From assembly GCA_016869025.1 (NCBI GenBank), contig VGFA01000001.1:140309-204308 (forward strand): a stretch of DNA of 64,000 nt, written 5' to 3'. The stretch is from Armatimonadota bacterium (GTDB lineage: Bacteria > Sysuimicrobiota > Sysuimicrobiia > Sysuimicrobiales > Humicultoraceae). Made by a program: the position numbers and the translations under genes. Below the pieces are notes generated by a model that saw only the letters and a list, made by a program, of their open reading frames with translations, made no database searches and was not told the origin of the DNA. Positions 40,090 to 55,811 of this stretch are shown here, in pieces (the stretch's first letter is position 1; the number at the start of each line of letters is the position of its first letter).

Positions 40090-40128
40090 GCGCGCTTGCC
40101 TCCTCGGGTGTGGTCACAAGACGCCCCA
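40090..40128 (-). promoter_or_regulatory. Conserved leader element, short copy A (RBS-proximal part)
   Basis: On the minus strand the leader reads ggggcgtcttgtgaccacacccgaggaggcaagcgcgc-ATG, matching copies B and C. Confidence 0.55.
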
Positions 40129-40179
40129 ACACCTAGCGTTGCTGCAGACCTGCGCACAAGAACAGGCCGGCACTCGCAA

Positions 40180-40398
40180 TCAGGCCCAAAGCGACACTGC
40201 CCTGGCGCGGGTCCGGCCTTTTCGCCCATGCCGGATGGCCAACGACCCCAGCACTACGGCGAGGAGGTTTGTGATCGTTGGAGGCAGCAGATGCAATGGG
40301 ACGGCAAAGGCGCAGATCGGGTCGTAGGAGCGGCAGTCTCCTGTCACCGCCGCATAGGCTGCACCCATCAAGCCGAACCCGAGCGCCCACGCCTTCAT
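40180..40398 (-). CDS. Small membrane protein, island paralogue B
   Basis: 72 aa with GDCRSYDPICAF followed by a TM helix. It is preceded by the long leader copy B. Confidence 0.5.
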   Translation of the reverse strand: MKAWALGFGLMGAAYAAVTGDCRSYDPICAFAVPLHLLPPTITNLLAVVLGSLAIRHGRKGRTRARAVSLWA

Positions 40399-40486
40399 AG
40401 CACTCGCCTCTTCGGTTATCAGACAATAAGACGCCCCGGCCCCTCGGGAACGGCGAGGCGTCTGGTATGGGGGCCGGGCTACCGGC
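40399..40486 (-). promoter_or_regulatory. Conserved structured leader element, long copy B
   Basis: It is about 80% identical over 88 nt to 41616-41706. It contains the pairing AGACGCC/GGCGTCT and CCGGCCCC/GGGGCCGG (pseudoknot-capable). It ends in GAAGAGGCGAGTGCT-ATG. Confidence 0.6.
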
Positions 40487-40787
40487 TATCTACGGCGACC
40501 GTTCGTCAGAAGGGGCTGCCGCCTCCTCCAATCGTGTCTGTCCCTCCCGGCATGGTTGACGCCCCTCGGCGCCCGGCCGACAGGTTGTCGAGCGTGCTCG
40601 CTCTTCGGAACTTGACGAACACCTCCGCCTTTGTGAGGTGCGCGTGTTGGCTGACCATGGCGAGGCTCCCAAGGACAGTACCACAGCACAGAAGCGCCGC
40701 CCGACAAGGCAAGCCTACGCGGCGTGGCAGCCCTTGCCGGACAGCCCTGCCACACGCCGCAGCAGCTTCGGCGCTGAGAGCACGCAT

Positions 40788-41615
40788 CTAGCGTTTCGGG
40801 GCGAAGCGCAGAAGTAGAACACGGCCAGCCTGATCCGGCGCGTTCGTCACCTGCCACGCGTCAGAAAACACACGCACCTCGCCACCTCTCAACGTCTGTT
40901 CGCGATGCCCAGAGAGTCCGACACGCACACTTCCAGAGATCCCAATGATGACCATGGGCTGGTCACTGGAGATGAATGTCCCCACATCCCAGTTTGGTGG
41001 GTAGCGACCGATGGAAATGCGGTAAAGCCAGACCGTGTGGGCTCCACTACTCAGTCCCACTGCTGCAACTGCAAAGGTCCGATATTCCGACGGGAGCGCG
41101 GAAGCAACGTCAGCACCCAACGTAATGAGGCAAAGTCTGGTCCTCAATGTCGAATGCCAGTCATGCGTGTGCTCGGCCCCGTCCGGTATCCACGCGGCCT
41201 CGCCGCTGACATGGTCGCTCGTTCGCCCCGCTATCGTCAGCAGATTGAGCCCCTCCACCGTGTACTCCCAACCCATCGCGTGGCTGTGGGTTCGGACGGA
41301 GGCGCCCGGCTCAACCACGAGTTCACTGACCTTGATGTTTGTGGGGGCGGCCGGCAGAATCGCCTCTTGCTGACCCAGGAGTTTGGTTTCAGGGCCGACG
41401 ATGATGAGTTGAGCCAAAGCATCGCTCGGGGCCAGTGCACCAGGGACGTTCTGTGCCCCGGTCATTTGTACGTAGCCGTCAGTGGTCACGCCCAGCGTCC
41501 ATTCTTCAATGCGCTGGCCCGGCACGATGAGGTTGTCGTCAGGAGCCTGCGCAAAGCCGGGCACCGACAGGGCGAGGGCAACGAACAGAAGCAGGACATA
41601 CGCAGTGGTCTTCAT
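40788..41615 (-). CDS. Secreted bicupin-domain protein
   Basis: It starts with the MKTTAYVLLLFVALALSVPGFA signal peptide. It has two cupin-like beta-barrel halves. It is preceded by leader copy C. Confidence 0.55.
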   Translation of the reverse strand: MKTTAYVLLLFVALALSVPGFAQAPDDNLIVPGQRIEEWTLGVTTDGYVQMTGAQNVPGALAPSDALAQLIIVGPETKLLGQQEAILPAAPTNIKVSELVVEPGASVRTHSHAMGWEYTVEGLNLLTIAGRTSDHVSGEAAWIPDGAEHTHDWHSTLRTRLCLITLGADVASALPSEYRTFAVAAVGLSSGAHTVWLYRISIGRYPPNWDVGTFISSDQPMVIIGISGSVRVGLSGHREQTLRGGEVRVFSDAWQVTNAPDQAGRVLLLRFAPKR

Positions 41616-41706
41616 CGCGCTCGCCTCCTCGGTTTCGGTCATTAGACAGCAAGACGCCCCGGCCCGCTGCGTGGGGCGAATCGCTCGGTACGGGGCCGGT
41701 ACCGGC
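41616..41706 (-). promoter_or_regulatory. Conserved structured leader element, long copy C
   Basis: See copy B. It contains the perfect palindrome GCCGGTACCGGC and ends in GAGGAGGCGAGCGCG-ATG. Confidence 0.6.
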
Positions 41707-41721
41707 GTGGCCGCATCGCAA

Positions 41722-42816
41722 TCATGGTTGCTTCAGAGTCAGCACCCAGATCTGCCACGGATCCTTCGCAAAGGCAATCCTCGCCCCATCTGGCGAAAAC
41801 GCTGCTCCACGGCCGGCGGTCAAGGATCGTGTCTGCGGCTCCGGCACGACGCCAGCGATGGCATCCGCGCTCGTCATGATCCAAAGAACGTCGCCGCGGC
41901 CGTAAACAATGAACTTGCCGTCGGGGGACACCACAGGTGCCATGTGGCCTTGGCCGGTGGCCACCGTGCGCAGTTCACGCGTGCGCGGATCCAACACCTG
42001 CAGATCGTTGGTAGATGACGAATCGATCACCTCCCGAGCATTGGCGACAAGAATGAACTTGCCGCTATCTCCGACGAAGCGTGGGGACTCAACGTTGCCG
42101 GGTCCCTCCCAGACCGACGACGCACCGGACCCATCCGCGTTCATGACATAGACACGACTGTTGCCGCTGGCACCGGCCCCGGAAAATACGATCTTCGTCC
42201 CGTCGGGGGACCACGACGGATCCCTCGCGCGACCCAGGTTCGTCAGTGCCCTGGCACCGCTTCCGTCCGGGTTGATCGTCCAGATCTCTTGGGTCCACCT
42301 CGGGGTGGGTCCCGTGACCAAGACGTCGAGCCCGACCGAACGATTGAAGATGATTCGACGACCGTCCGGAGACCACGACGGGTTGTCATTGTGTTCCCCG
42401 GCGGCCTGCCTGGTGAGGCGCCTGGGAGATTGTCCCTGGATACCCACGACCCAGATGTCCGAGGGGTGGAACTTGAGCCCCGGACGGTCAGGGAGCCTGC
42501 TAACTTCACCAATGCGACTGAACGTGATGGTCTGGCCGTCCGGAGACCAGCTCACCGATCCGTACCTGGATCCCGGCGATCCACTGCCCACATCGCGCTG
42601 GAGAACGAGAGTCGCGTCCCCTGGTTCTGGCAAGGGGCTCTGACCAGCGAGCGGATGCGCCAACAGGGTGACGGCGATGACCGCTGCAAGAAGCAAATTG
42701 ATCGCAAACAGGCGCCATCCCCCGGAGCGACAGCCACGTTCCTTCAGCGGGTTCCCTGGCAGCTTCCCTCCAAGACCTAAGCAGCCACCGTTACTGGCCA
42801 TCTCCGTACCTCCCAA
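41722..42816 (-). CDS. Membrane-anchored TolB-like (PD40/WD40-like) beta-propeller protein
   Basis: It has an N-terminal TM segment and repeated SWSPDG / SPDG blades (SWSPDGQTITF, SWSPDGRRIIF, SWSPDGTKIVF, SPDGKFIVY, SPDGARIAF). Confidence 0.7.
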   Translation of the reverse strand: MGGTEMASNGGCLGLGGKLPGNPLKERGCRSGGWRLFAINLLLAAVIAVTLLAHPLAGQSPLPEPGDATLVLQRDVGSGSPGSRYGSVSWSPDGQTITFSRIGEVSRLPDRPGLKFHPSDIWVVGIQGQSPRRLTRQAAGEHNDNPSWSPDGRRIIFNRSVGLDVLVTGPTPRWTQEIWTINPDGSGARALTNLGRARDPSWSPDGTKIVFSGAGASGNSRVYVMNADGSGASSVWEGPGNVESPRFVGDSGKFILVANAREVIDSSSTNDLQVLDPRTRELRTVATGQGHMAPVVSPDGKFIVYGRGDVLWIMTSADAIAGVVPEPQTRSLTAGRGAAFSPDGARIAFAKDPWQIWVLTLKQP

Positions 42817-42885
42817 CTCCGATCGTCTTGCCGGTTCAGGTCCCCGGAGCCGTCATGCCGCCTTCATGCCCTTTCCCACAGAGCG

Positions 42886-43326
42886 CTATCGACAGTTGGG
42901 ACGTTCACAGCGCCACCAGATCGGGATGAGGACCGTGTCATCGAGCACCTTCTGCTCTACGTCCCTGAAGAGACGAATGCCGTCGTAGACGTCTCCGACC
43001 GATCGTGGCCGGTCGATCAGCGCTCGAGCCCGACCGATGAGGGCGTCCACGTCGGGATTCGCGTAACCGAAGATGTTCAGTGAGCCTTTCGAGTGGGCGA
43101 GAAGTTCAAGCAGGCTGCGCACCCCCACGACGAGGATGTTCAGCCCTGTGTCCTCCGTACAGGCGTTGGTGAACAAGGCCACGTAGAAGAGGTGGATCGC
43201 GGAGGAGCGCACGACGCTGGCGTCACCACCGGTCCGCACCGTAACGCGAAAGCCGAGCTCGCGAAGCTCACTCACGAAATCGTCCGCACCGGCGAGACCT
43301 TCGTTCACCCACAAGCTCACCGGCAC
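42886..43326 (-). pseudogene. Remnant (C-terminal about 30%) of a family-5 ABC substrate-binding protein
   Basis: The 146-aa ORF matches only the C-terminal region of Opp/Nik-type binding proteins (NIFGYANPDVDALIGRA...VLIPIWW). There is no signal peptide or N-terminal lobe. Confidence 0.5.
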
Positions 43327-43455
43327 GTCACTGGGCTTGATGCCTCTGTTCTCAATCGCCTGCTTTGCGGCGGCGAGATCATAAGGCTGCGGCCTCGGTA
43401 GGACCGAATTCTCGACGCACTGCGGAGGTACGATGCCCCGGGCGCGCGAGGCGGC

Positions 43456-43881
43456 GTGTGGGCGCTCGCCGGCAGCACAGTCAGCAGCCGCGCTCCCGAT
43501 GCCCCTTCGCCAGCCGCATCTGCTGAGGAGATGCAGCGCATCGTGACCCGCGCCCGGGCGATGGTGGGCACCGGCCTGACGGCTGTCGTCGGGTGGATGG
43601 CTCTTGGATTGGCGGGGAGCATCCTTGTCGGCTCCCTGCGCACTGCGGCGCTGGCCGTCCTCGTCGGCGCCGCTCTGATAGGGCGTGGCATGCCCGATGC
43701 TGTGTTGTTCGGCACGCCCGCGTTTCTTGTCGCTCTGGGAGGCATGGTCGGCGGAATGCTGGGTCGGATGCAGCAGGCCTGGCTGGGCCGGCCCTGGTGG
43801 GATTTCGTGGGAGGAGCCGTTGGGGGAGCCATCGGATTGGTGGTGGCCCTTGTCCTCCGTTTCCTGTACAAGCTCGGCTGA
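43456..43881 (+). CDS. GlsB/YeaQ/YmgE-like glycine-zipper membrane protein (tandem)
   Basis: It has Gly-zipper TM repeats (GWMALGLAGSILVG; GGAVGGAIGLVVAL). The real start may be the ATG at 43564. Confidence 0.45.
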   Translation: MWALAGSTVSSRAPDAPSPAASAEEMQRIVTRARAMVGTGLTAVVGWMALGLAGSILVGSLRTAALAVLVGAALIGRGMPDAVLFGTPAFLVALGGMVGGMLGRMQQAWLGRPWWDFVGGAVGGAIGLVVALVLRFLYKLG

Positions 43882-43907
43882 TCCGAATGGGTGGGAGGTG
43901 AGCAGTC

Positions 43908-44555
43908 ATGCGCTTGCTCGGAGCCATGCTGTTCGTTCTTGTGGGTGCGGCCACCCAGCCCAGTGCGCCCATCGCGCTGACAAACGTCTACCACTCGCTC
44001 GAAGGCCAGACGCTGGTCATCCACGGGATGGTGGAGAATCGGTCGGCCGCTTCCTTGGGACGCCTTGTCATCGACGCCACCGGACTCACGCCGTCCGGAA
44101 GCGCCGCCTACGGCGGGAGCGATGGGATCCCCTGGGGTGTGGCGCCGGGGAGGGACGAAGCGTTCTCCATCAACCTGTTTCTCACCGGACAGCTCGTGCG
44201 CGAGTATGTGGTGCGGGTGGCGCTCGCCAGCGCTCCCAACCGCCCTCTGGCGAGCGTCCGGCGCAGTGCCGACGGCTCGCTCTACCGGCCGCTGCTCATG
44301 TCCGTCGTGCGGCTTCGGGGAGCCGTCAATGGCGATCTCCTCAGCGTGCGCAGCGACGCGGGCGGGTGGCCTGTTGCACAGGTCACCGTTGAGGCCGTGC
44401 TACTCGTTCCTGGCCATCACGCGCCCCACCTCCGGCGACTGGTCCTGGATGTACCCGCGGACGGCGAAGGCCGGATCCGGCACGGGCTCGCCGGGGCCGA
44501 ACTGGTGGGCCTGCGGGTGGTGGACGTGCGTCCGAAGGTGCTCTGGGAGGACTAG
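43908..44555 (+). CDS. Secreted hypothetical protein
   Basis: 215 aa with an MRLLGAMLFVLVGAAT signal peptide and two beta-rich halves. No known motif was found. Confidence 0.4.
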   Translation: MRLLGAMLFVLVGAATQPSAPIALTNVYHSLEGQTLVIHGMVENRSAASLGRLVIDATGLTPSGSAAYGGSDGIPWGVAPGRDEAFSINLFLTGQLVREYVVRVALASAPNRPLASVRRSADGSLYRPLLMSVVRLRGAVNGDLLSVRSDAGGWPVAQVTVEAVLLVPGHHAPHLRRLVLDVPADGEGRIRHGLAGAELVGLRVVDVRPKVLWED

Positions 44556-44773
44556 GAACCACCGGCGATGGCTGTAATGCCCTGGACACAGGGATTTCGG
44601 GGCCCATGTCGAATATGTCTCCGGAATCCAGTGCAGCAGATTCACGGGAGGTGTTCCCGCACGGCTGCTGCTGAACGTAGCGGCCGGCGGATGTCCAGGG
44701 CCGTCGCTCCAGAACGCCGCGACCACGCATAGCGAAGGGCACGAACCGCACGCGGTGGCCCCGGGGGTCGGCA

Positions 44774-47700
44774 ATGCGGTGTCCTTCCTGCGGTCATGAG
44801 CGGACGTCGCCGCACCTGCGGTGCAGCAACTGCTCTGCAACCTTCCCGCGCGAACTCCTCGAACGATACGATCGTCTGACCTTCCTGCTCGGCGTGGTCT
44901 CGGATTGGGAGCGCGCCGGGCGGATCTCCGAGTCGGCCCGTGCTGAAATCGCGGAACCCTGTCTGAGGGAACTGGAACGGGTCGAGCAAGAGCTCGGCGT
45001 GCGCGCCGCGCCGCCGGTTCCTGAGGCGCTTGTGGTGCCCGTCCCGGTTGCGCCTGTCCCGCCGGCGCCGACCGTCGCCCATGGGCTGATCCCCGCGGCA
45101 CCCGCATCGTCCGTCCCGCCGGAGGGGGCTCTCCCGGAAGGCGGCCCTCCGGAGGTGGCTCCGTCCCCCCCGCGTCCCCTGATCCCTCGGATCTCCTGGG
45201 AGGATGTCTGGCGAGGGCTTCTCTCTGAACGGTCGCTCGAGGTGCTCCTGTTCGCCGGCGCGGTGCTGATCATCGCCGCGGCGGGAACGTTCGTGTACTT
45301 CAACTGGGGACGGTTCCCCCCGGCGCTGCAACTGCTCTCCCTGATCGTAGGCACGGCGTCGTTCTTCGTCGGCGGCTGGCTGCTCCGCACGCGCTGGAGG
45401 TTGACGCAGTCCGCGCCGGCGCTGGTGGGCATCGGAGCTTTCATCGTTCCGGTGGACTTCTACGCGTGGGCCCGCTTCCGCGATGTCCCACCGTCCGCCT
45501 ACGCGGCCCTGTGGTGCACGGCGTCAATCTGCTGCGGGGTTGTCTATGCGGCAACCACCTGGTGGCTGCGCCACTGGTTCTTCTGCGTGCTGCTCCTGCT
45601 GGCCGCCCACAGCCTGGCGCTCGCGGTGCTCTTCCTGCTGGGCGTCCCACCGGCATGGTGGGGAGCGGTCGCGGCGGCGCTCGCCACGGTGTGGATGGTT
45701 CTGAGGCCCCGGTTCTCCCTGGCCGGGCCGGGGTCCGAGCAGGCGGCCACAGGCGTCTCGATCGTCGCGGCGGTGCTGGGCGTGGCGGTACCGGCGCTTC
45801 TCCAGGCCGAGAAGTGGGGCACCCTGTTTGACGGCACAAGCCCCGCGGGCGCCTGGATCCTGCCGGTGGCGGCGGCGGTGTGGATGGGCGCGGTGTTTCT
45901 GTTTGCATTCCACCGGCGTCTGCCCTCCGGCGACGCCGCGACGCTGGCGGCGCTGACACCGGCGGTCGCCGTGGTGATGACCCTCCTGCCGATGATGACG
46001 CGGCCGTGGGTGAGCCTCGGCATCCTGATTCTCGCCGCGGTGTATGTCGCCCTCGAGGACCGCGTCCTGGGGTCGCTGGCCCCGGCCATGCGCGGGACGG
46101 CCATCGGAGCGTCGCTGGTCGCCGTCGCCTGGTCTTTGATGGATCGTGTCACCGCCGCGGTCGTCGTACTCGCGGCGTCGGCGCTCTACGCCTGGTGGGC
46201 GTTCGAGTTTCGGCGGCCGGTGGTGCTCATCGCCGCGCAGATCGCCGCGCTCGTGGGACTGCTGTACGCGCTGGCCGTCGCCCGCGTCGCCGTGGGGTAC
46301 TGGCCTCTCGCCGGTCTCGCGGTCGCCGCGGTCAGTCTCGCGGGCACCGTCGCGGCGCGCGCGGCGCCCGGTTTCGCCAGAGTCCTGTATGTCGGTGCGT
46401 ACGTCTTCCCGGTACTCGGCATCGTCGCCACCGTCGATGTGAAGGCACCTGCGCTGGTGCTCACCACCTTGCTCGGCGGTGCGCTCGCCATCGCGGTCTA
46501 CTCAGCAGTTCTGGTGCACCGGGGCAGCGATCCGGCGCTGAGCGCGCTCGCGGCGCGGCTGCCGGCGGGCGGCGGCCTGCTCTTCCAGTGGGTGGCCGCC
46601 GCTTTGGCCGCCGCTGAGGTGGCGGTCGCGTGGCTGTGGTGGCGTCCGGTGCCCCATGGCTTGGCCGCCGCATGGCTGACGCTCGGCACGGGATTCGTCC
46701 TGATCGGCCGGCGCTTGAGGCACATCGACCCGCGCTATCTCCGTCCGTGGGCGGCTTCGGCTCTGGTGCTCAGCACGCTGGCGACGGTGCTCGCCCTGGT
46801 CGTGGAAGTTCGCGCACCGCTCATCTACACGCTGCTGCTGGCGACGGTGACTTCGGCACTGTGGGCCTGGCTGCTTCGGTCTCCATGGCTCGCGTATGTC
46901 GCCGCCGGGCTCCTACTCGTGCCGTTTGGGCTTGCGCTGCCCGATGCCGTGGCACATGGTCTCATCCCGTCCAGGGCGGCCTACACCTGGCTCATCGCCT
47001 CACTGGGCGCGGTCTATCTGCTTGCCGGTGTGATCCTGGATCGCTCTGAACCCCGATTCGGAGCACCCGTGCACCTCGTCAGCCACCTCTTGATCCCGTT
47101 CTCGCTCGTGTGGGTGCTGCAGGAGCCGCCGCTCGGCCTGCAGACGCTGGCCATCGCCGTCGCGTTCTATGTCGCGTCCGCACGGCTGGTGCACGAGGGC
47201 CGGCACCCGACGGTGATGAGCCTGATTGACCGTCTCACGCAGACGGCCCCGGGTGCCGCGCCACCGCTGCGGGCCATATTCGTCTATGTGTCGGCCTGGC
47301 TGTTCCCGTTCTGGTTTGAACTCGCCGCGTCACGCGTCCCTGCGGTTCGCGAAACGCGGGCGTTTCTTGGCGTCACTGCCGCAGCGCTGGCGTGGGCCTA
47401 TCTAATGGTCGGACAGTGGATACGGCGGGCGAATCCCGCGTACGTGCCACCGTTCAGGATCGCCGCGCAGGCGCTGGTCATCGCCGGCGGTCTGCTGGCC
47501 GTCGAGCACCGCCCGCTGCTCCTTGGGGCGGTCGCGCTCGGCGCAGGGCTGCAGGTGGCGCTGTACGCCCTGTCGGGCCAGACGGTGTGGGTGTACACCG
47601 CGGCCCTGGGAGGCGCGGGCTGGCTGGGGTTGGCGCTCAACCACCTGCATTTCCACTCGGCTCCCGCGGGATGGGTGATGATCCTGCTCGGGATTGGGTA

Positions 47701-49405
47701 CGTCGGTCTTGCCGAGGTCAACTGGCGCCGGACCGCGACGCGCGACGTCCCACCGGTATCGGCCGCCCTCCTGGCGGTGGCGTTCCTGGTCGTGGTGATC
47801 GGCATCCTGCTCACCGCCCTGCGGGTACCCGAGAATGCCTGGGCCGCGTACGCGGTCAGCGCGCTGCTCTTCCTCTGGTGCGGGTGGCGGCTGCGTGAGC
47901 CGCTGCTGGGATACCCGGCGGCGGGTCTGGCCGCGGCGACCTACGTCGCCGTCCAGACCACCCTGCTGAAGGGCACAGGTGCGTCCACTGCGCACCATGG
48001 CGTGGCGCTGTTACCCGGGGTGGCGGTGTTCTTCGCCGTTGCGTGGGCGCTCGATCGACGCGCCGCTGCCGCAGGGCCGCCCTCCCAGAAGGGCGCGTGG
48101 AGTACCCCGATGGACGCGGCGGCGCAGATCGGCATGCTCGTGGCAGTCGTCTTTGCCTCAACGCACCGCTGGCTGTTCCCTGCATCGCTGGGGCTCGCCG
48201 CTGTGCTCTACGGACTATCGGCCGTGCGATTCCGCCGGCCTGTGCTGGTGTACGCGGCACTGCTGGCCGCCCTCGCCTCGGCGTTGTTCGCGTTGCTGCA
48301 GGCACCCATTGCGCCTCGATACATCCCCGTCGCCTTCGTACCGGTCGCCTGGGCGCTGGCCTTCATTGGCTGGCGCACGGAGGCGGTGCACAGCCGTCAG
48401 GCCCTGTTCACAATGACGTGGGCCCAGCCGTGGCATGTGGCGGCCCTCGCCACTGTGGCGCTGTGGGAACTCGTGGGGATGATCGAGGCCCGCGCCCAAC
48501 TGCTCACGTCGTTGGGCTTCGCGGCGCTCCTGTGTGCGTACGCGTTCCGGTGGCGGGAGTGGAGCGCCGCGACTGCGGCGCAGGTGCTTGTGGTGCTGGG
48601 CATCGGCGGCGGTCTCCGCTGGCTGCAGGTGACGTATCCCGCCTGGCTCGCGGCCGCATCGCTCACTGCGCTGGCCTTCGGCGTCCTGTCGGTGATCCTG
48701 GGTGTCCTGCGCAGGGGAGCCTTGTGGCAGACGGGCGCGCGCGGGCTGGCCCACGTGCTGGCCGCCGGCGCGCTCGTGTGGGCATTCTTGGGCGTCGTCG
48801 CGGCGGTGCACGCGAAGGCCGGAGAAGGTCTGGTCTACACGCTGGCCATCGTGGGCCTGCTCTACCTGCTGCTCGCCATCAAGGACCGGCAGGAGTGGCT
48901 CGGCTACCTCGCCGTCGCCATGCTGGAACTCGCCTGGGGTCTCTTCTTGCTGCGCAGACTTCAGGTGACCGAGATCCAGGCGTACGCGATTCCCTCATCG
49001 CTATATCTCCTCGGCATAGGGGTGGTGGAGCGACGGATGCGCCGGCCGACGCTCGCGCGGTTCATCGAGGTCGCGGGCCTCATTCTGCTGCTGGGCTCTG
49101 CGTTCTGGCAGTCCGTGACCGGCGGAGGGTTCTGGTACGCGGTTCTGCTGGCGGTCGAGGCGGTCGCGGTGGCCTGGGCCGGCGCGGCGTGGCGCCTGCG
49201 TCACTACTTCTTCAGCGGCATCGGGATGCTGCTGGTGAACGTCGTCGCCCAGGTCATCGATCCCCTGCGTGCGCTCGACAAGACGATCTTGTTCCTATCG
49301 CTTGGCGTGCTGCTGGTGCTCATCGCGGTGGCCGCGGAACGCAAGCGGGAGGCGATCATTCGGACCACGCGCGAGTGGCGCTCGCGGCTGGAGGCATGGG
49401 AGTGA
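44774..49405 (+). CDS. Giant polytopic membrane protein with N-terminal zinc-ribbon and Pro-rich linker
   Basis: 1543 aa. The N-terminus is CPSCGH-x12-CSNC, followed by a P/A/V-rich linker, then about 40 predicted TM helices with internal repeat units (Y..W.FRRPV motifs recur). The C-terminus overlaps the next gene by 10 nt. Confidence 0.7.
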   Translation: MRCPSCGHERTSPHLRCSNCSATFPRELLERYDRLTFLLGVVSDWERAGRISESARAEIAEPCLRELERVEQELGVRAAPPVPEALVVPVPVAPVPPAPTVAHGLIPAAPASSVPPEGALPEGGPPEVAPSPPRPLIPRISWEDVWRGLLSERSLEVLLFAGAVLIIAAAGTFVYFNWGRFPPALQLLSLIVGTASFFVGGWLLRTRWRLTQSAPALVGIGAFIVPVDFYAWARFRDVPPSAYAALWCTASICCGVVYAATTWWLRHWFFCVLLLLAAHSLALAVLFLLGVPPAWWGAVAAALATVWMVLRPRFSLAGPGSEQAATGVSIVAAVLGVAVPALLQAEKWGTLFDGTSPAGAWILPVAAAVWMGAVFLFAFHRRLPSGDAATLAALTPAVAVVMTLLPMMTRPWVSLGILILAAVYVALEDRVLGSLAPAMRGTAIGASLVAVAWSLMDRVTAAVVVLAASALYAWWAFEFRRPVVLIAAQIAALVGLLYALAVARVAVGYWPLAGLAVAAVSLAGTVAARAAPGFARVLYVGAYVFPVLGIVATVDVKAPALVLTTLLGGALAIAVYSAVLVHRGSDPALSALAARLPAGGGLLFQWVAAALAAAEVAVAWLWWRPVPHGLAAAWLTLGTGFVLIGRRLRHIDPRYLRPWAASALVLSTLATVLALVVEVRAPLIYTLLLATVTSALWAWLLRSPWLAYVAAGLLLVPFGLALPDAVAHGLIPSRAAYTWLIASLGAVYLLAGVILDRSEPRFGAPVHLVSHLLIPFSLVWVLQEPPLGLQTLAIAVAFYVASARLVHEGRHPTVMSLIDRLTQTAPGAAPPLRAIFVYVSAWLFPFWFELAASRVPAVRETRAFLGVTAAALAWAYLMVGQWIRRANPAYVPPFRIAAQALVIAGGLLAVEHRPLLLGAVALGAGLQVALYALSGQTVWVYTAALGGAGWLGLALNHLHFHSAPAGWVMILLGIGYVGLAEVNWRRTATRDVPPVSAALLAVAFLVVVIGILLTALRVPENAWAAYAVSALLFLWCGWRLREPLLGYPAAGLAAATYVAVQTTLLKGTGASTAHHGVALLPGVAVFFAVAWALDRRAAAAGPPSQKGAWSTPMDAAAQIGMLVAVVFASTHRWLFPASLGLAAVLYGLSAVRFRRPVLVYAALLAALASALFALLQAPIAPRYIPVAFVPVAWALAFIGWRTEAVHSRQALFTMTWAQPWHVAALATVALWELVGMIEARAQLLTSLGFAALLCAYAFRWREWSAATAAQVLVVLGIGGGLRWLQVTYPAWLAAASLTALAFGVLSVILGVLRRGALWQTGARGLAHVLAAGALVWAFLGVVAAVHAKAGEGLVYTLAIVGLLYLLLAIKDRQEWLGYLAVAMLELAWGLFLLRRLQVTEIQAYAIPSSLYLLGIGVVERRMRRPTLARFIEVAGLILLLGSAFWQSVTGGGFWYAVLLAVEAVAVAWAGAAWRLRHYFFSGIGMLLVNVVAQVIDPLRALDKTILFLSLGVLLVLIAVAAERKREAIIRTTREWRSRLEAWE

Positions 49406-49977
49406 CCGAGGGCGTGATCCGGGTCGAAGTCCCCGCCGGTTTCTGGCCCCGGCTGCTCGCGTTCTGCCTCGATGCCATCGCTGCGGGTCTCCTCGAATCC
49501 CAACTGGCCGATGCGTTGCCTCCCGGACTGGTCACGGTGGCGTACTTCTGGCTGCTGACCGGCATCCTGGGGCGAACGCCCGGCAAGATCGTCCTTGGCA
49601 TCGAACTGGTCGGGCCAGAGGGCAAGGTGGGTCTTGGCCGCGCGTTCCTGCGCGAGGTCATCGGAAAGCTGATCGGCGCGGTGGCGTTCGGGCTCGGTCT
49701 GCTGTGGATCGCGTTCGATCCGCAGAAGCGCGGGTGGCACGACGTGATCGCCGACACCAGGGCGGTGCGCGTGAGCACGACGCTGTGGGCGGCCGCCTGG
49801 GAGAGCGAGATCGCCGGCCTGCTCGCCGATCGCGGCGAGGCCCGCGCCGAGTGGCTGGTCAGGGTCTTGCCCGAGAGTCGCGAAGCGGCGCTCCGAGGGT
49901 TCGCCGTCAAGCACGCGCGGGGCGTGACGCTGTCGGAGGGAGTGCTCACGCCGACGGGTGAGGTCGAATGGTTCTGA
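49396..49977 (+). CDS. RDD-family membrane protein
   Basis: Conserved Arg and Asp residues are present (FWPRLLAFCLDAI ... GWHDVIADTRAV). It has three TM segments plus an approximately 70-aa soluble tail. It has 10-nt overlaps at both ends (ATGGGAGTGA and ATGGTTCTGA). Confidence 0.7.
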   Translation: MGVTEGVIRVEVPAGFWPRLLAFCLDAIAAGLLESQLADALPPGLVTVAYFWLLTGILGRTPGKIVLGIELVGPEGKVGLGRAFLREVIGKLIGAVAFGLGLLWIAFDPQKRGWHDVIADTRAVRVSTTLWAAAWESEIAGLLADRGEARAEWLVRVLPESREAALRGFAVKHARGVTLSEGVLTPTGEVEWF

Positions 49978-51473
49978 CGCGCGCGGGCATCCGCTGGTGT
50001 CTCGCCGTTCTGGCTCTGCTTTCCCTGGCCTTGGTGCTGGGGGTCGAGCTGGGACTGCGGGACGGGCGAGAATCCGGCGCGGGGTGGATCCGTCATCCCT
50101 GGGCGGACCTGCGCGGTCCCGCGCAGCTGGTCGCGGCGTTGAGCGTTGGTGCGCTGTTGCTGTCGGTCCTCCTTGCGGGACGGCAGCGTCCTCCAAGCAC
50201 GGCCCTGGTTCCCGTGGAGACTGTTGTCGAGCACCGGACCTTCTCGGCGCCGGTCAAGGCACTGCTGCTGGGCATCAGCGCGGTGATGGCGGTGGTCGGT
50301 GGCCTGGCGTTCGCGGGAATCGACGTGCTTCTCGCACTCACACACTCCGAGTTGGCGTTTGCGCTGGCCGTCGGCTGTCTGGTCGGCGGGATCATCACGG
50401 TCGTGCAGGTGCGTCACTCGCTCGCCGGGAGACCGGCACGGCGATTCCGTCTGCCGTCCGTGTTGATGCTGGGCCTCGGGTTCGTCCTCGTGGTCGCAGC
50501 CGGCACGGTCACCCTGTACCTGCGCCAGCGCGTGGGGTTCAGTTTCGCGCCGCTGCTGTTCCTCGGCGCGGCGCTGCCGCCGCTGGCCGCGCTGAGCGTC
50601 GCGGCGGAAGGTGTTGGCCAGCCGGCATCGGCGCGCCGTGTGCTAGTCGCCATGGTGGCCGGAGGCACCGCATCGGTGATCGCCGCGGTCATGTTGGAGA
50701 TGCTCCTGCCCGGGATTATCGCCCTCTTCGTGAAACCCGTGGCCGACATGATACGGGAGGTCATCGCGCTCATCGACCAGGGGAGGTTCAGCGACCTCTT
50801 CAGGTCGCCGGCCGCCATCTTCGCGTTGGTCCAGCTCGCCGTCGTCGCACCCATCGCGGAAGAGGCGGTGAAGCCGATCGGCGTGATGGTCCTGGGGCGC
50901 CGCATCCAGTGCGCCCGCGACGCGCTACTGATCGGCATGGGGTGTGGGGCAGGGTTCGCCATCGTCGAAAACATCATGTACGAGGGCGGAGGGATCTCCA
51001 TCTGGGCGGGCATCACATTTGTTCGCGCGATCGGCGGGGCGCTGCACCCCATTGGCGCGGGACTCGTCTCGCTCGGGTGGTTTGGGGTCTTTCAGCGCCA
51101 ACCCGGGAGGTGGCGCAATCTTGCCCGCAACTACTTGGCGGCTGTCGGTCTTCACGCGATCTGGAACGGCGCCTGCGGGATCTTCTATCTCCTGGAGTCG
51201 GCGCATAGAGACGTCCTCGGACCGGTCGACCTGCAGGGGTGGGTCATTGACATCGGCCTGCTCGCCCTCTTCCTGGTTGAGGGCGCGTTCATGTTCTGGG
51301 CGGTGCGGCGCATCGCGCAGGCGCTCGCAGCCGATGCGGTCCCTCAGCCGGCCCTCCCGCCGGCCCGCCTGTTAGGTCTCTGGGCCGTCGCCTGCATGGG
51401 CGTGCTGCTGCCCATCGCCGCAGCCGCCAGCCGCGCGGTCGTGCGCTACCTGGAGTCCGGCCCGTCACCGTAG
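49968..51473 (+). CDS. PrsW-family intramembrane glutamic protease with extra N-terminal membrane domain
   Basis: It has the motifs EE..K (PIAEEAVKP), F...E (GFAIVEN) and H...N (GLHAIWNG). At 501 aa it is much longer than B. subtilis PrsW. Confidence 0.7.
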   Translation: MVLTRAGIRWCLAVLALLSLALVLGVELGLRDGRESGAGWIRHPWADLRGPAQLVAALSVGALLLSVLLAGRQRPPSTALVPVETVVEHRTFSAPVKALLLGISAVMAVVGGLAFAGIDVLLALTHSELAFALAVGCLVGGIITVVQVRHSLAGRPARRFRLPSVLMLGLGFVLVVAAGTVTLYLRQRVGFSFAPLLFLGAALPPLAALSVAAEGVGQPASARRVLVAMVAGGTASVIAAVMLEMLLPGIIALFVKPVADMIREVIALIDQGRFSDLFRSPAAIFALVQLAVVAPIAEEAVKPIGVMVLGRRIQCARDALLIGMGCGAGFAIVENIMYEGGGISIWAGITFVRAIGGALHPIGAGLVSLGWFGVFQRQPGRWRNLARNYLAAVGLHAIWNGACGIFYLLESAHRDVLGPVDLQGWVIDIGLLALFLVEGAFMFWAVRRIAQALAADAVPQPALPPARLLGLWAVACMGVLLPIAAAASRAVVRYLESGPSP

Positions 51474-51870
51474 GCTCGTGGTCGCAAGGGTCTCTGGAAC
51501 GACCCCGGCAGCGGTGATGCGCTGTGGGGGTTCCTTGCCGCGGCCAGTGGCGTCCGTGCGTCGGCAGGTGCCGGGGTGCGGCGATGCGGGAACGCAGGGT
51601 TCCTTCAGCGACAGCGGGATGGTCGTGATCCGGTACGCGCCCATTACGCGCATAGTCTGGAGCCGGATTTTCCCACATCGTTGCCCGGCGCGACCCAGAA
51701 GGACGTCGACGACTTCCACCGGTTCCACGGAGTCGATGACCCCATGCCCGTTCGTTATGTCAGGTTCCTTTCGCAACTCGCTCCCAGGTGCCGCATCCAG
51801 GCGTCCGAGCCTCGATAGGGTTGTCACCTGATGGACTCGCGGCCTGGACAACGCGTACGTTTGGATCGAG

Positions 51871-52284
51871 ATGCAGGAATTGGAATATCCTCGGGGTCGG
51901 GCCGGACGGATGCTGCCGCGCTTCATAAGGGAGGCAGGTGTGCTGCGAGCGCTAGCCCATCCTGTGCGGCTGGCGATCCTGGCGCACCTGCGTCGCAGGC
52001 CGGCCTGCGTCTGCCACCTCACCAGGGCCTTGGGCCGGCCCCAGGCGTACGTCTCGCAGCAGCTCGCGGTCCTGCGCGGCAGCGGGCTGATCGAAGGGCA
52101 GAGGGAGGGGGCGTACGTCTACTACGGACTGCGCGACCGCGGCGTGCTGGCGCTCGTGGATCTTGTCGGCGGGCTCCTCGGGCGCGCGGTTGTCGGCGCC
52201 TTGCCCCCGGGCGGGCGGGTCGAGGGATGCGAGTGCCCCCGCTGCCGCAAGGACGCCGTGACCACGGTGGGATCCCGCGGATGA
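51871..52284 (+). CDS. arsR: ArsR/SmtB-family metalloregulator
   Basis: It has the HTH motif LAHPVRLAILAHL and an ACVCHL site analogous to the As(III)-binding ELCVCDL. The likely start is the ATG at 51910. Confidence 0.8.
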   Translation: MQELEYPRGRAGRMLPRFIREAGVLRALAHPVRLAILAHLRRRPACVCHLTRALGRPQAYVSQQLAVLRGSGLIEGQREGAYVYYGLRDRGVLALVDLVGGLLGRAVVGALPPGGRVEGCECPRCRKDAVTTVGSRG

Positions 52285-53330
52285 TCGGCGATCTGTTGAT
52301 CGCGGGCCTCCGCGCGCTCTGGGAGTACATCGCCCTGCACGTGCTGACCTGCCTGATTCCGGCGTTTCTGCTGGCCGGCGCGATCGTGGCCTTCGTCTCG
52401 AAAGAGGCGGTAATGGCGCGCCTGGGGAGCGCCGTCTCCAAGACGGCCAGCTTCACGACCGCCGCCGGCGCCAGCTTCTTACTCGCCGCCTGCTCGTGCA
52501 CCGTCATTCCGGTCTCCAGCGGGCTCTACTACGGCGGCGCCGGGATCGGCGCGGCCTTCATCCTGCTGTGGGTGGCCCCGGCATCGAACCTGCTCTCCCT
52601 GGTCTACACCGGGAGCATCCTGGGCGCCCAGATGGTCTGGGTGCGCGTCCTGGCGGCGCTGGCAATGGCCTTCATCGTCGGGTGGGTGATGACGCTGGCC
52701 TTCCGGCGGGAGGAGGCAGGGCGGATGAGCACTGCATCCGGTGGCTCCGGGACCCGGATCCTGGGCCAAGACGACCTCACGCTTCTGGGGCTGCTCGTCG
52801 CCTCGCTGCTGGCTCCCAACTATCTGGTTCGGGGCGGCCCCTACGTCCAGAAGTTGCTGGTATGGGCGGCGGCGACCGCGCTGGTGGCCGCCTATGCCAG
52901 GCGGCGAAAGACCGGCGAGGAGATCCGGCGCTGGTTAGGCGAGACGTGGTGGTTCGCCCGCATGATCTTCCCCTTGCTGTTGCTGGGCGTCTTCATTGTT
53001 GGCATGGTTGGTGCGTCGATCCCTCGGGCGTGGATCGAGTCGTACCTTGGAGGGTCTGGGCTCCTGGCGTCGTTTCTGGCCACGCTGCTCGGGAGCGTCA
53101 GTTACTTCGCCACGATGACCGAGGCGCCGTTCGTGCACACGCTGCTCGGGCTGGGCATGGGCAAGGGGCCTGCCCTGGCCCTGCTGCTGACCGGGCCCGG
53201 GCTCAGCCTGCCCAACTGGCTGGCGATCGGCCGCGTCTTCGGCGCGCGGAAGGCCGCCGTCTATGTAGGCACGATCATCGTTCTGGGCACCATCGGAGGC
53301 TGGTTCGCCGGGACGTTCGTATTCAAGTGA
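52281..53330 (+). CDS. arsP: ArsP-like (COG0701/DUF318) permease with CSC motif
   Basis: 349 aa polytopic protein with AACSCTVIPV, resembling the TPFcSCS motif of the organoarsenical efflux permease ArsP. Its ATG overlaps the arsR stop. Confidence 0.6.
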   Translation: MIGDLLIAGLRALWEYIALHVLTCLIPAFLLAGAIVAFVSKEAVMARLGSAVSKTASFTTAAGASFLLAACSCTVIPVSSGLYYGGAGIGAAFILLWVAPASNLLSLVYTGSILGAQMVWVRVLAALAMAFIVGWVMTLAFRREEAGRMSTASGGSGTRILGQDDLTLLGLLVASLLAPNYLVRGGPYVQKLLVWAAATALVAAYARRRKTGEEIRRWLGETWWFARMIFPLLLLGVFIVGMVGASIPRAWIESYLGGSGLLASFLATLLGSVSYFATMTEAPFVHTLLGLGMGKGPALALLLTGPGLSLPNWLAIGRVFGARKAAVYVGTIIVLGTIGGWFAGTFVFK

Positions 53331-53343
53331 AGGGGGCGATAGC

Positions 53344-53601
53344 GTGATCACCATCGAGATCTTCGGCCCGGGGTGCCAGAAGTGCAGGGCCACCGAGGCC
53401 GCGGTGCACAAGGCGGTGCAGATGCTGGGACTGCAGGCTGCGATAACGCATGTGCGTGACCCAAAGGAGATGGCTGCTCAGCGCGTGATGTTCACGCCGG
53501 CGGTACGGATAAACGGCGAGCTGAAGTGCGCCGGGCGCGTGCCCGAGGTGGCCGAGATCACAACCTGGCTCACAACGGCTGCTGCTGATGGGCCTGTTTG
53601 A
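53344..53601 (+). CDS. Thioredoxin-fold 'redox-active disulfide protein 2'-like small protein
   Basis: 85 aa with a GPGCQKC (CxxC) motif. The family is commonly found in ars operons. Confidence 0.65.
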   Translation: MITIEIFGPGCQKCRATEAAVHKAVQMLGLQAAITHVRDPKEMAAQRVMFTPAVRINGELKCAGRVPEVAEITTWLTTAAADGPV

Positions 53602-54637
53602 GCGCTACCTGAGCCTGTGGGTGGCCGCCTGCATGGCGGTCGGCGTGCTGATCGGGAAGGCGCTGCCGGGTCTGACCGACCTGATGCGGCGCCTGGAGTT
53701 CGGGCAGGGCAGCCAGATCAACGTGCCCATCGCCGTGCTCATCTGGCTGATGATAACCCCCATGATGATGAAGGTCGACCTTGCCTCCATTCGGAATGTG
53801 GGGAAGCGCCCCCGCGGGCTGTTCGTGACGCTGTTCGTCAACTGGCTGGTCAAGCCGTTCTCGATGGCCCTGATCGCCTGGTTCTTCTTCCGCCATGCCT
53901 TCGCGGCGTGGATCGCGCCGGGCGAGGCCGACCAGTACATCGCCGGCGCGATCATCCTGGCCGCGGCCCCTTGCACCGCTATGGTCTTCGTGTGGAGCTA
54001 CCTCACCGACGGCGATCCGGCCTACACCCTCATGCAGGTGTCGGTGAACGACCTGATCATGCTCTTCCTGTTTGCCCCAATCGTGCGCTTCCTCGTCAGC
54101 GGCGCCGCCTCGCTCGAGATCCCTTTTCGCGTGCTGCTCTACTCGGTCGCCGTCTTCATCGTGGTGCCCCTGACCATTGGGGTCGTCTTGAGGGGCTGGT
54201 TCGTCAGGCGCAGGGGTCTCGCGTGGTTCGTCGGCGCCCTGCTTCCGCGCTTCGCGCCGGTAAGCATGGGAGCGCTGCTGGCTACGCTCGTGCTCATCTT
54301 TGCCTTCCAGGCTGACAACATCACCGGCAGGAGCCTGCACGTGCTCCTGATCGCGGTGCCGATACTCATCCAGGTCTACTTCAACTCGTCGCTCGCCTAC
54401 CTGCTGATGCGGCTGTTCCGGGTCAGGCACGCAGTCGCCGCCCCAGGCGCGCTGATAGGGGCCAGCAACTTCTTCGAGCTCGCGGTCGCCACCGCCATCG
54501 CCCTGTTCGGTCCCGGGTCCGGCGCCGCGCTGGCTACCGTGGTGGGGGTTCTGATCGAGGTGCCGGTGATGCTCTCGGTGTGCTCGGTCTGCAACCGCAC
54601 CCGACACTGGTTCCCCGCGGCCGAGGGGGCCGGTTAG
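53588..54637 (+). CDS. arsB: Arsenite efflux transporter, ACR3 family
   Basis: It has the ACR3 signature LIWLMITPMMMKVD ... AAAPCTAMVFVWSYLTDGD. 349 aa. Confidence 0.85.
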   Translation: MGLFERYLSLWVAACMAVGVLIGKALPGLTDLMRRLEFGQGSQINVPIAVLIWLMITPMMMKVDLASIRNVGKRPRGLFVTLFVNWLVKPFSMALIAWFFFRHAFAAWIAPGEADQYIAGAIILAAAPCTAMVFVWSYLTDGDPAYTLMQVSVNDLIMLFLFAPIVRFLVSGAASLEIPFRVLLYSVAVFIVVPLTIGVVLRGWFVRRRGLAWFVGALLPRFAPVSMGALLATLVLIFAFQADNITGRSLHVLLIAVPILIQVYFNSSLAYLLMRLFRVRHAVAAPGALIGASNFFELAVATAIALFGPGSGAALATVVGVLIEVPVMLSVCSVCNRTRHWFPAAEGAG

Positions 54638-54666
54638 GAGAAGGCTTGGATCCAGCGAGGAATGCC

Positions 54667-55230
54667 GTGCAGCAAGTCCCGGCGTGGCGCGTGTTCACAG
54701 CCTTCGTCCGCCTGGGTGCGACCGCCTTCGGCGGTCCGGCGATCGTGGCGCACCTGAAGGCCGAGCTGGTAGGCAGGCGGCGCTGGTTGACCGAAGCGGA
54801 CTTCGCAGACGGCCTGGCGCTCTGCCAGATCATCCCAGGCGCCACCATGGTGATGCTCTCAACCTACGCCGGATACCGTGTCGCAAGGATTCCTGGGGCC
54901 GCAGCCGCAGCGATTGGGTTCGTGCTGCCTGCCTTCGTGGTGATGCTTGTCCTCTCGGCGCTGTACGCGCACTCCGGCGCACTGCCGGCGGTCCGCGCCG
55001 TCTTCCGCGGGCTGGGTGCCCTGGTCGTGGTCGTCGTTCTCAATGCCGCGATCAATCTCGGCCGGTCCGCGCTGTGCGATTGGCAGGGGGTGGTACTGGC
55101 CTGCCTGGCCCTGGTGGCGCTCGTCCTAGGAGTGGGATTCCCGGTCGTCGCCGCCGGCGCTGCAGTGCTGGCTTTGGGGCTGTACCGGACCCAGGCCGTG
55201 CCCGGAAGGAGGCCTCCCGGTCCCTCATGA
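54667..55230 (+). CDS. chrA: Chromate transporter ChrA, N-terminal-type half (short-chain CHR)
   Basis: It has the motif FGGPAIVAHLKAELV.RRWLTEADFADGLALCQIIPG. A GTG start is assumed. Confidence 0.7.
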   Translation: MQQVPAWRVFTAFVRLGATAFGGPAIVAHLKAELVGRRRWLTEADFADGLALCQIIPGATMVMLSTYAGYRVARIPGAAAAAIGFVLPAFVVMLVLSALYAHSGALPAVRAVFRGLGALVVVVVLNAAINLGRSALCDWQGVVLACLALVALVLGVGFPVVAAGAAVLALGLYRTQAVPGRRPPGPS

Positions 55231-55811
55231 GGCCCCGAGGGTGGGCGATCGCCTTCATGCTGGGGATGGCTCTTGTACTGGGCCCCCGGATCTGGAACCC
55301 CGTGCTGGGGCATCTGAATCTGGTGCTCATGAAGCTGGGGATAATGGCCTTCGGCGGAGGGTTCACCCTGATACCGCTGATCCAGCAGGAAGTGGTCAGC
55401 CGCTTGGGATGGCTGACCACGCGCGAGTTCATTGACGGCGTCGCCCTGGGGCAGGTGACGCCAGGACCCATCCTGATCACCGCTACGTTCATAGGCTACA
55501 AGATCGGCGGGCTGGCCGGGGCCGCGACCTCCACGATCGCGGTCTTCCTGCCGTCGTTCCTGGTGCTCGTGGGAGTCGTCCCGCACTTCGACGAACTGAG
55601 ACGCCTCCAGGCGGTGCAGACGATGATCCGGGGCGTGCTGGCCGCCTTCATAGGGCTTCTGCTCTTCATCCTGCATCAGTTCGGGCAGGCGGCGTTGACG
55701 GACTGGAGGACCTGGGCGGTGGCGATCGTTGTGTTCGCCGGCCTGCGCGGGGGCGTGGGCCTCCTTACGCTCGTCGGGCTGACCGCGGTGGTGTCGCTGC
55801 TCGCGCTCTGA
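55227..55811 (+). CDS. chrA: Chromate transporter ChrA, C-terminal-type half (short-chain CHR)
   Basis: It has the motif FGGGFTLIPLIQQEVV ... GVALGQVTPGP. Its ATG overlaps the first half's TGA. Confidence 0.7.
   Translation: MRPRGWAIAFMLGMALVLGPRIWNPVLGHLNLVLMKLGIMAFGGGFTLIPLIQQEVVSRLGWLTTREFIDGVALGQVTPGPILITATFIGYKIGGLAGAATSTIAVFLPSFLVLVGVVPHFDELRRLQAVQTMIRGVLAAFIGLLLFILHQFGQAALTDWRTWAVAIVVFAGLRGGVGLLTLVGLTAVVSLLAL

Follow-up and report, generated by a model that had tools for sequence, protein, structure and literature searches.

A giant polytopic membrane protein and an enlarged PrsW-family intramembrane protease are encoded next to each other in a 64,000-nucleotide stretch of contig VGFA01000001.1 (positions 140,309 to 204,308 of the forward strand; assembly GCA_016869025.1, deposited as Armatimonadota bacterium). 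This whole stretch is called the window in the following. Here, the two genes belong to a plus-strand operon of three: the gene of the giant protein (44774..49405, 1543 amino acids (aa), unannotated family), the gene of a small RDD-family membrane protein (49402..49977) and the PrsW gene (49968..51473, 501 aa). Our main observation is that the giant gene and the PrsW gene recur together in distant relatives. Comparative gene order gives good support to the view that they constitute a vertically conserved, Chloroflexota-specific membrane module, the core of which is a gene pair. PrsW and RDD are known families and the giant protein represents an unannotated one, such that this PrsW appears to have a dedicated and highly unusual partner. 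With regard to function, we tentatively prefer the reading in which the giant helical-repeat protein is a target of PrsW, either for processing or for control.

Conservation of the gene pair and its variable partners

For the neighbourhood survey, hidden Markov models (HMMs) of PrsW, RDD and a small membrane protein which we call 'post' were compared with the six-frame open reading frames (ORFs) of all loci. There are 81 non-redundant loci; in 68 of them, the sequence continues beyond the giant gene for 1.5 kb or more. A PrsW gene is located downstream on the same strand in 61 of these 68, and in 49 it lies within 300 nucleotides (nt). Relatives at 47–48% identity keep the order giant–RDD–PrsW with different flanks, and relatives at 25–30% identity keep giant–PrsW, the flanking genes differing there as well. 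Apart from the families searched for, no conserved neighbour was found among these loci, be it a sigma factor, an anti-sigma factor, a site-2 protease or any other gene, and no other family occurs in more than about 10 loci. A functional membrane module can soundly be deduced from this conserved pairing. The zinc-ribbon-polytopic/RDD/PrsW triad, for which a survey had been proposed in a preliminary description of the locus, thus recurs in its giant and PrsW parts, while RDD is found in the window's clade only.

One might object that these are co-transcribed but functionally unrelated membrane genes whose adjacency was inherited by descent in one phylum. All loci indeed come from one phylum, so the synteny could partly reflect shared ancestry, and PrsW is missing in 7 of the 68. 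However, the pair is retained at only 25–30% identity, where none of the flanking genes is the same; its genes overlap or lie directly next to each other; the PrsW partners make up a subfamily of their own, characterised by a common N-terminal extension; and a fusion of RDD with PrsW points to a physical link. We consider an accidental neighbourhood very improbable.

The protease matches the Pfam family PrsW (PF13367; MEROPS M82) with 64.4 bits against a gathering cut-off of 23.5 (E = 1.3e-17), the match covering aa 235–405 only. Active sites of PrsW proteins comprise the motifs EExxK, a conserved His in the following transmembrane (TM) helix and HxxxD/N (PMC4602095). In the window protein, the catalytic core motifs (50859..51167, plus strand) are E298-E299-x-x-K302, F330-A-x-x-E334, H360 and H396-x-x-W-N400; EExxK, FAxxE, the His and HxxWN are invariant in alignment A4 and kept in 59 to 62 of 62 orthologues. 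The enlarged PrsW-family protease that had been described is thereby confirmed, and judging from these residues the enzyme is most probably catalytically intact, with its active site under selection. Upstream of the core, aa 1–230 (49968..50657, plus strand) form an N-terminal TM extension, delimited from A4 and from conservation in the 62 orthologues. It carries a conserved R161-L162-P163 loop motif, and its first ~95 aa are specific to the window's clade. With this extension in common, the PrsW partners of giant genes appear to form one distinct subfamily. A PDB sequence search with the PrsW profile yielded no real match. In locus L007, located on a 755-kb contig, the PrsW gene appears split into ORFs of 336 and 74 aa (L007:15579-16867), either by an assembly frameshift or by real pseudogenisation.

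The small partners are less constant. The RDD protein is a member of PF06271 (67.2 bits, gathering cut-off 24.1, E = 2.4e-18); the eponymous residues R19, D26 and D115/D119, assigned by eye, are visible in the translation, and a soluble tail of ~70 aa is added at the C-terminus. It had been taken for a third subunit of fixed stoichiometry, which does not agree with its distribution: the gene is confined to the window's clade, namely the window, L002, L003 and L089, plus a version fused to PrsW in L088, and in most relatives PrsW is followed by 'post' or preceded by a different small TM protein. In L088, the giant protein of which is 45% identical to that of the window, the RDD TM domain and PrsW reside in one in-frame ORF of 631 aa (L088:9118-11013) which lacks the C-terminal tail of RDD. 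This single metagenomic instance suggests a Rosetta-stone-type link between RDD and PrsW; the 11 matches examined contain no further fusion of this kind.

The 'post' protein (185 aa, signal-anchored) follows PrsW in 45 of the 57 loci with enough sequence. Examples are L004:15607-16173 and L006:15210-15767, which together with 44 other loci make up alignment A6 with 11 invariant residues. Its topology is RsiW-like, with a short N-in segment, one TM helix and an external domain. It has no Pfam family; 5 of 46 members show weak, sub-threshold matches to the LmeA-like phospholipid-binding family (best E = 1.3e-3). The 'post' profile found no real PDB match, its hits to antibody light chains being noise. 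The gene of a second unannotated small TM family, 'mid', which features the motif RHxQQALLLV and a helical C-terminal tail, lies between the giant gene and PrsW in about seven loci and occupies this slot in loci without 'post'. It was located at L010:10574-11290, L070:3779-4663, L007:14861-15532, L031:7385-8167 and, as the C-terminal part of a fusion to a Reg_prop beta-propeller, at L053:3831-5714. Neither 'post' nor 'mid' has a homologue in the window, which was searched for both. Neighbours of 185–223 aa in distant loci were considered as diverged RDD proteins and rejected, as they represent the two separate families 'post' and 'mid'. A further gene, coding for a 23S_rRNA_IVP-type four-helix bundle, stands between giant and PrsW at L004:13873-14283, L005:7852-8262 and L044:10620-11087. 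In L044, a short repeated motif that codes for a peptide (QIADCKLQIADCRLQI) lies upstream of it. This gene looks like a mobile insertion.

Architecture and relatives of the giant protein

As the window has a GC content of ~68%, and many long spurious ORFs arise in high-GC DNA, the giant ORF might be a chance product or a fusion created by sequencing errors. An independent JGI metagenome contig (Ga0194120_10007106, sample 3300020198, L001; 15.5 kb) is 99.9% identical to window positions 40194-55667. The sole difference is an in-frame indel of 15 nt (47330..47344, plus strand), which encodes SRVPA (aa 853–857) in a loop of the giant protein and is missing in the JGI contig. Because of this contig and of relatives that are full length at 45–50% identity, the giant ORF did not arise by chance or from a fusion in sequencing. 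The sequencing-error fusion, which the preliminary description had itself raised, is ruled out. Hundreds of more distant homologues, motifs that are conserved along the entire length and confident AlphaFold2 (AF2) models are in good agreement with a genuine gene; in fact, the homologue data by themselves already refute an artefact, the probability of which we regard as negligible.

Conservation in the giant protein was derived from an alignment of 23 homologous sequences (A1). Two AF2 models, covering aa 1–1200 (pLDDT 82, pTM 0.58) and aa 700–1543 (pLDDT 85.7, pTM 0.64), agree in the region where they overlap. The protein begins with a cytoplasmic C4 zinc ribbon (aa 1–24; 44774..44845; this and all following features on the plus strand) of the form CxxC-x10-CxxC. 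It gives a weak Zn_Ribbon_1 match and short strands in AF2, and its residues C3, C6, C17 and C20 are at least 90% conserved. A conserved two-helix hairpin follows (aa 26–74; 44849..44995), with AF2 helices at 26–47 and 53–74 (pLDDT ~80–90) and a consensus conserved in A1. The subsequent linker (aa 77–141; 45002..45196) consists of Pro to 32% and is predicted to be disordered (pLDDT below 50 over aa 80–142). The remainder is an uninterrupted array of 50 TM-length helices (aa 152–1523; 45227..49342), connected by loops of mostly 2–10 residues and followed by a basic C-terminal helix. Zinc ribbon and Pro-rich linker are as originally described, while the number of TM helices had been put too low at about 40. 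The loops on the N-terminal side of the membrane contain 57 Lys and Arg residues versus 25 on the other side. By reason of this bias, the models fit an N-in/C-in topology with all 50 helices spanning the membrane.

The claim that the array is built from internal repeats is borne out. Profiles of 150-aa segments match other parts of the protein off-diagonal with up to 46 bits, compared to at most 5 bits in reversed and block-shuffled controls. Offsets between matching segments cluster at 222–234 aa, which dominate, and at ~660–674 aa, with weaker signals at 109–127 aa. The array is built from repeats of ~225 aa with half-units of ~110 aa. According to the offsets, the repeat unit comprises ~8 TM helices in two half-units of ~4 each. 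Neither the PrsW extension nor the RDD protein turned out to be homologous to these repeats when tested by sequence.

Two regions are most conserved. The first comprises the first five TM helices, with invariant S151, G201, W247, S251 and Y258 and with D228 conserved to at least 90%; it corresponds to an N-terminal TM module (~aa 152–300; 45227..45673), delimited by alignment conservation, which is common to remote DUF2157-type giants. The second is formed by the last ~190 residues and represents a family-signature C-terminal module (aa 1350–1543; 48821..49402) with the motif QxYAxPxxxY, which ends in the basic, cytoplasmic helix. Its invariant residues are Q1402, Y1404, P1407, Y1411, E1419, Q1446, E1462, Q1493 and W1542, and E1419, Q1446, E1462 and Q1493 are polar residues within helices. 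Profile sequence searches of the PDB gave no real match for the giant protein, and no structural match was obtained for the AF2 models, such that its predicted fold appears to have no solved analogue. Locally, the modelled array resembles a hydrophobic hairpin solenoid; its packing is more certain at this local level than its overall shape.

Even at permissive thresholds, comparison of the giant protein with Pfam and NCBIfam yielded nothing but a sub-threshold zinc ribbon. The first homologue search returned the 23 sequences mentioned above, five with 45–50% identity and similar length, the rest with 25–30% identity and 1,900–2,570 aa. None of them has any Pfam annotation, and a Pfam scan of all 23 gave nothing usable. 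In an exhaustive profile search, the C-terminal 504 aa were compared with 1.84 billion representatives, which yielded 287 clusters (at 50% identity) with E ≤ 1e-30, 702 with E ≤ 1e-10 and 1508 with E ≤ 1e-3. We take ~290–700 of these clusters as the extent of the family. The matched domain is always located at the C-terminus of proteins of ~1,500–2,800 aa, the longest having 2,776 aa. Scanning one genome per species, we found 77 loci with the C-terminal module. Nearly all are labelled Chloroflexota (Anaerolineae, Caldilineaceae, Chloroflexia and others), and one short contig is labelled Thioalkalivibrio. Larger members have ~60–80 TM segments, a rough estimate from hydropathy peaks calibrated on the window protein.

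More distant profile matches (E = 1e-31 to 1e-4) are giants of Dehalococcoidia, Arthrobacter, Myxococcus xanthus and Streptomyces, and they match only in the zinc ribbon plus first TM module and in the C-terminal module. Three of them were inspected at their loci L085–L087 (P0034, P0030 and P0025): those of M. xanthus (1848 aa), Arthrobacter (1357 aa) and a Dehalococcoidia metagenome-assembled genome (1405 aa). At none of the three is PrsW a neighbour. Remote giants without the full family architecture thus also lack PrsW neighbours, and the pairing therefore appears specific to the window's family. The window protein has no NCBIfam match at E ≤ 0.01 and in particular none to 'SCO7613 C-terminal domain'; the family profile matches the C-terminal region of Streptomyces proteins of that name with ~4e-16 per domain, a remote relationship only. 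For SCO7613 itself, the only reported effect is on PHA accumulation (PMC8313934). Taken together, these matches hint at a wider unannotated superfamily of zinc-ribbon/DUF2157-like giants which includes the 'SCO7613 C-terminal domain' proteins.

Two relationships to annotated domains bear on function. The first is DUF2339 (PF10101), to which the giant protein had been likened. The window protein gives no match even at E ≤ 10, PF10101 is carried by 0 of 62 profile hits, and among the 23 family members one reaches E = 0.002 and none the Pfam threshold; membership in DUF2339 is accordingly not indicated. The comparison is of interest since Arc3A, a DUF2339 protein (PA5114 of Pseudomonas aeruginosa) with 35 TM segments and no catalytic motifs, prevents the accumulation of lysophospholipids (PMC8926400). 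By analogy, the giant array could bind or sequester lipids, e.g., lysophospholipids, or stabilise the bilayer in lipid homeostasis or defence, with PrsW and the small partners in an auxiliary role of quality control or turnover. Arc3A is the one characterised giant protein of high TM density that we found, and it protects against a phospholipase toxin (PMC8926400); the single weak DUF2339 match and the 5 of 46 'post' proteins with LmeA-like matches would suit such a role. Against it, 22 of the 23 members show no DUF2339 match and the 23rd stays below the Pfam threshold, no profile hit carries PF10101, the LmeA matches are sub-threshold in a protein that the window does not have, and Arc3A systems pair with Arc3B (PF13163), not with PrsW (PMC8926400). 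We judge an Arc3A-like function to be unlikely.

The second relationship concerns DUF2157 (PF09925). Neither the giant protein nor its family matches it directly in Pfam. Two of the remote giants, P0024 and P0025, have sub-threshold DUF2157 matches within the matched first module (27 bits, cut-off 32.4), and DUF2157 and LiaI-LiaF-TM, a sensory domain for envelope stress, have been merged into one (PMC11237479). The relation of the giant's first TM module to this domain is transitive and is to be taken as a lead, not as demonstrated membership. It nevertheless raises the possibility of a sensor-gated protease, in which the array, as sensor or scaffold, responds to the packing of lipids, to curvature or to damage caused by antimicrobial peptides and controls PrsW allosterically, while the substrate is encoded elsewhere or is the small accessory protein in the membrane, comparable to RsiW, which PrsW of Bacillus subtilis cleaves at site 1. 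PrsW is an established stress-responsive site-1 protease (PMC4602095), the first TM module is transitively linked to a sensory domain (PMC11237479), and a 'post' with RsiW-like topology follows PrsW in most relatives. On the other hand, no sigma factor, anti-sigma factor or site-2 protease is conserved nearby, the window's clade has no 'post', the giant protein itself has no Pfam DUF2157 match and the accessory proteins carry no recognisable signalling domain. Such an arrangement seems less probable to us than action of PrsW on the giant protein, but more so than an Arc3A-like role.

For the same reason, namely that no sigma or anti-sigma gene or any other gene is conserved beside the module, the operon does not give evidence of a classical signalling pathway of regulated intramembrane proteolysis (RIP), which the preliminary description had considered possible. 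A zinc-binding anti-sigma (ZAS) protein as RIP substrate would be expected to contain an HxxxCxxC anti-sigma domain (zf-HC2), to cross the membrane once and to be encoded beside an ECF sigma factor. In the giant protein, the ribbon is of the type CxxC-x10-CxxC and gives no zf-HC2 match, the TM helices number 50, and no sigma gene is conserved nearby.

Gene junctions and surroundings

The three overlapping ORFs on the plus strand that were described at the outset are real and conserved. At both junctions, the stop codon of one gene overlaps with the start of the next. The preliminary description had assigned exactly 10 nt to each overlap. At the giant/RDD junction, which reads CTGGAGGCATGGGAGTGACC, two starts are available, GTG at 49402 (191 aa) and an alternative ATG at 49396 (193 aa). 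A Shine-Dalgarno-like GGAGG (49390..49394, plus strand) within the last codons of the giant gene is spaced 7 nt from the GTG and only 1 nt from the ATG. It is identical in L002, the giant/RDD junction of which equals that of the window, and is present in L003, where the junction CCTGGGATTGA has no ATG and translation would start at a TTG (TTGA, 4-nt overlap). The RDD proteins of L002 and L003 align from residue 3 of the window's RDD, and the gene call on the JGI contig starts at the GTG. On the strength of the GGAGG spacing, these alignments, the missing ATG in L003 and the JGI call, the conserved RDD start is most likely GTG 49402, which overlaps the giant stop codon as GTGA, i.e., by 4 nt.

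The 10-nt overlap of RDD and PrsW (ATGGTTCTGA) is real in the window, whereas L002 and L003 have TGATG with an overlap of 1 nt. Since relatives thus differ, with 4-nt and 1-nt overlaps, the apparent match in overlap length is coincidental and carries no stoichiometric message; the argument from identical overlaps to a fixed-stoichiometry complex fails. The junctions do indicate translational coupling of the giant, RDD and PrsW genes. A scan of the locus for promoters and terminators was uninformative.

Just upstream of the operon, at window positions 40001-44000, the GC content falls to 63%, compared to 67–71% elsewhere. This part holds a cupin-like gene and a gene of a PD40/TolB-like beta-propeller (41722-42816, minus strand), and three small ORFs without family are associated with the dip (42886-43308, minus strand; 43543-43881; 43908-44555). 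Directly downstream of the operon, an unrelated metal-resistance cluster (51871-55811) encodes an ArsR-type HTH protein, an ArsP_1 permease, a thioredoxin-like protein, the arsenite efflux protein ACR3 (TIGR00832, E = 4e-108) and a chromate transporter. It is followed by an M20 peptidase gene (55926-57284).

Possible function and comparison with known systems

From a functional point of view, we return to the reading that PrsW processes or controls the giant protein within a dedicated membrane module. The giant protein would expose its cytoplasmic zinc ribbon and hairpin on a long, disordered Pro-rich tether, in front of an array composed of the conserved N-terminal TM module, expandable repeats of ~225 aa and a C-terminal module rich in buried polar residues. 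The three proteins would be co-translated and form an assembly within the membrane. The RDD protein of the window's clade most likely docks on PrsW, a suggestion that draws on their fusion in L088. PrsW would then act on the giant protein by processing and maturation or by regulated or quality-control cleavage, such that the state of the helical array is adjusted upon membrane perturbation. From gene content and models we infer a physical complex, a substrate relationship and a physiological role of this kind, in which the giant protein may serve as scaffold, substrate or sensor.

We rank this reading first, with restraint, for three reasons. The pair is the only invariant element of the locus; PrsW acts as a dedicated processing enzyme in other contexts described, i.e., on RsiW and in fused toxins (PMC3482391); and the tethered cytoplasmic head is reminiscent of releasable domains. 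Several points weigh against it. In 7 of the 68 loci no PrsW is adjacent. As the accessory gene varies between RDD, 'mid' and 'post', the actual substrate or regulator could be found among these small proteins instead. Fusion of RDD with PrsW was seen once, in the metagenomic locus L088, and the other recorded members of the ~500-aa PrsW clade, which number about 10 in all, are unfused. The giant protein has almost no extracytoplasmic loops, and as characterised PrsW cuts an extracytoplasmic segment of RsiW, loops of 2–10 aa offer no obvious cleavage site. Furthermore, the global shape in the AF2 models is less certain, as their pTM values show.

A bolder version may be added, to which we give little weight. 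Here, the giant protein would be a new class of membrane-embedded alpha-solenoid, a 'transmembrane TPR', an expandable array of hairpin-packed helices, the length and integrity of which are set by PrsW. Through cleavage, the zinc-ribbon head would be freed or attached anew and thereby report on the state of the membrane. If true, this would be a previously undescribed, Chloroflexota-specific proteolytic membrane-sensing system with one of the highest TM counts per polypeptide. The probability that the module represents a novel kind of membrane-sensing or processing system is modest in any case.

Irrespective of the mechanism, very few partners or substrates have been identified so far for the large families PrsW and RDD. 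A PrsW subfamily that is locked to one unusual neighbour across dozens of species provides a testable candidate pair of protease and substrate or regulator, and the RDD–PrsW fusion would be the first contextual functional link for the RDD family. With hundreds of clusters, the giant family extends the few 'massive polytopic' bacterial proteins, among which only Arc3A has a known role, and it is found in Chloroflexota only, a phylum with a cell envelope that is still little understood. Proteins of ~50–80 predicted TM helices are also of interest for membrane-protein biogenesis and structure. In literature searches of incomplete coverage, we found no report on a giant–PrsW module and none that mentions PrsW and RDD together; work on PrsW and Chloroflexi concerns polymorphic toxin/deaminase systems, metagenomic promoter mining and sigma-V/RsiV sensing.

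Among known systems, PrsW/RsiW of the B. subtilis sigma-W pathway is the closest on the side of the protease. The window protease belongs to the same family, PF13367, has intact EExxK, His and HxxxN/D motifs and is likewise a membrane-embedded enzyme, presumably with a membrane partner. B. subtilis PrsW has ~218 aa. The window PrsW is, with 501 aa, more than twice as long, has additional TM helices at both the N- and the C-terminus, and ends its motif series with HxxWN instead of HxxxD. Its partner is a protein of 50 TM helices, not a single-pass anti-sigma factor, and neither a sigma factor nor a site-2 protease is linked. In polymorphic toxins, PrsW forms an N-terminal fusion with a secreted toxin domain and was proposed as a dedicated processing peptidase for the linked protein (Zhang et al. 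2012; PMC3482391). The window PrsW, in contrast, is a separate gene beside a non-secreted giant, and there are no toxin or immunity genes. The RDD protein is a bona fide member of PF06271 that differs by its C-terminal domain of ~70 aa and by its context in a PrsW operon.

On the side of the giant protein, Arc3A shares size, high TM number and density, the lack of obvious catalytic residues, wide conservation and an adjacent partner gene (PMC8926400). It differs in having 35 TM segments, no zinc ribbon, Arc3B/PF13163 in place of PrsW and no significant sequence relationship to the window giant, the family of which is restricted to Chloroflexota. The DUF2157/LiaI-LiaF-TM and 'SCO7613 C-terminal domain' giants follow a like plan, an optional zinc ribbon and then a long TM array; they match the window's family in the end modules only and lie in neighbourhoods without PrsW.

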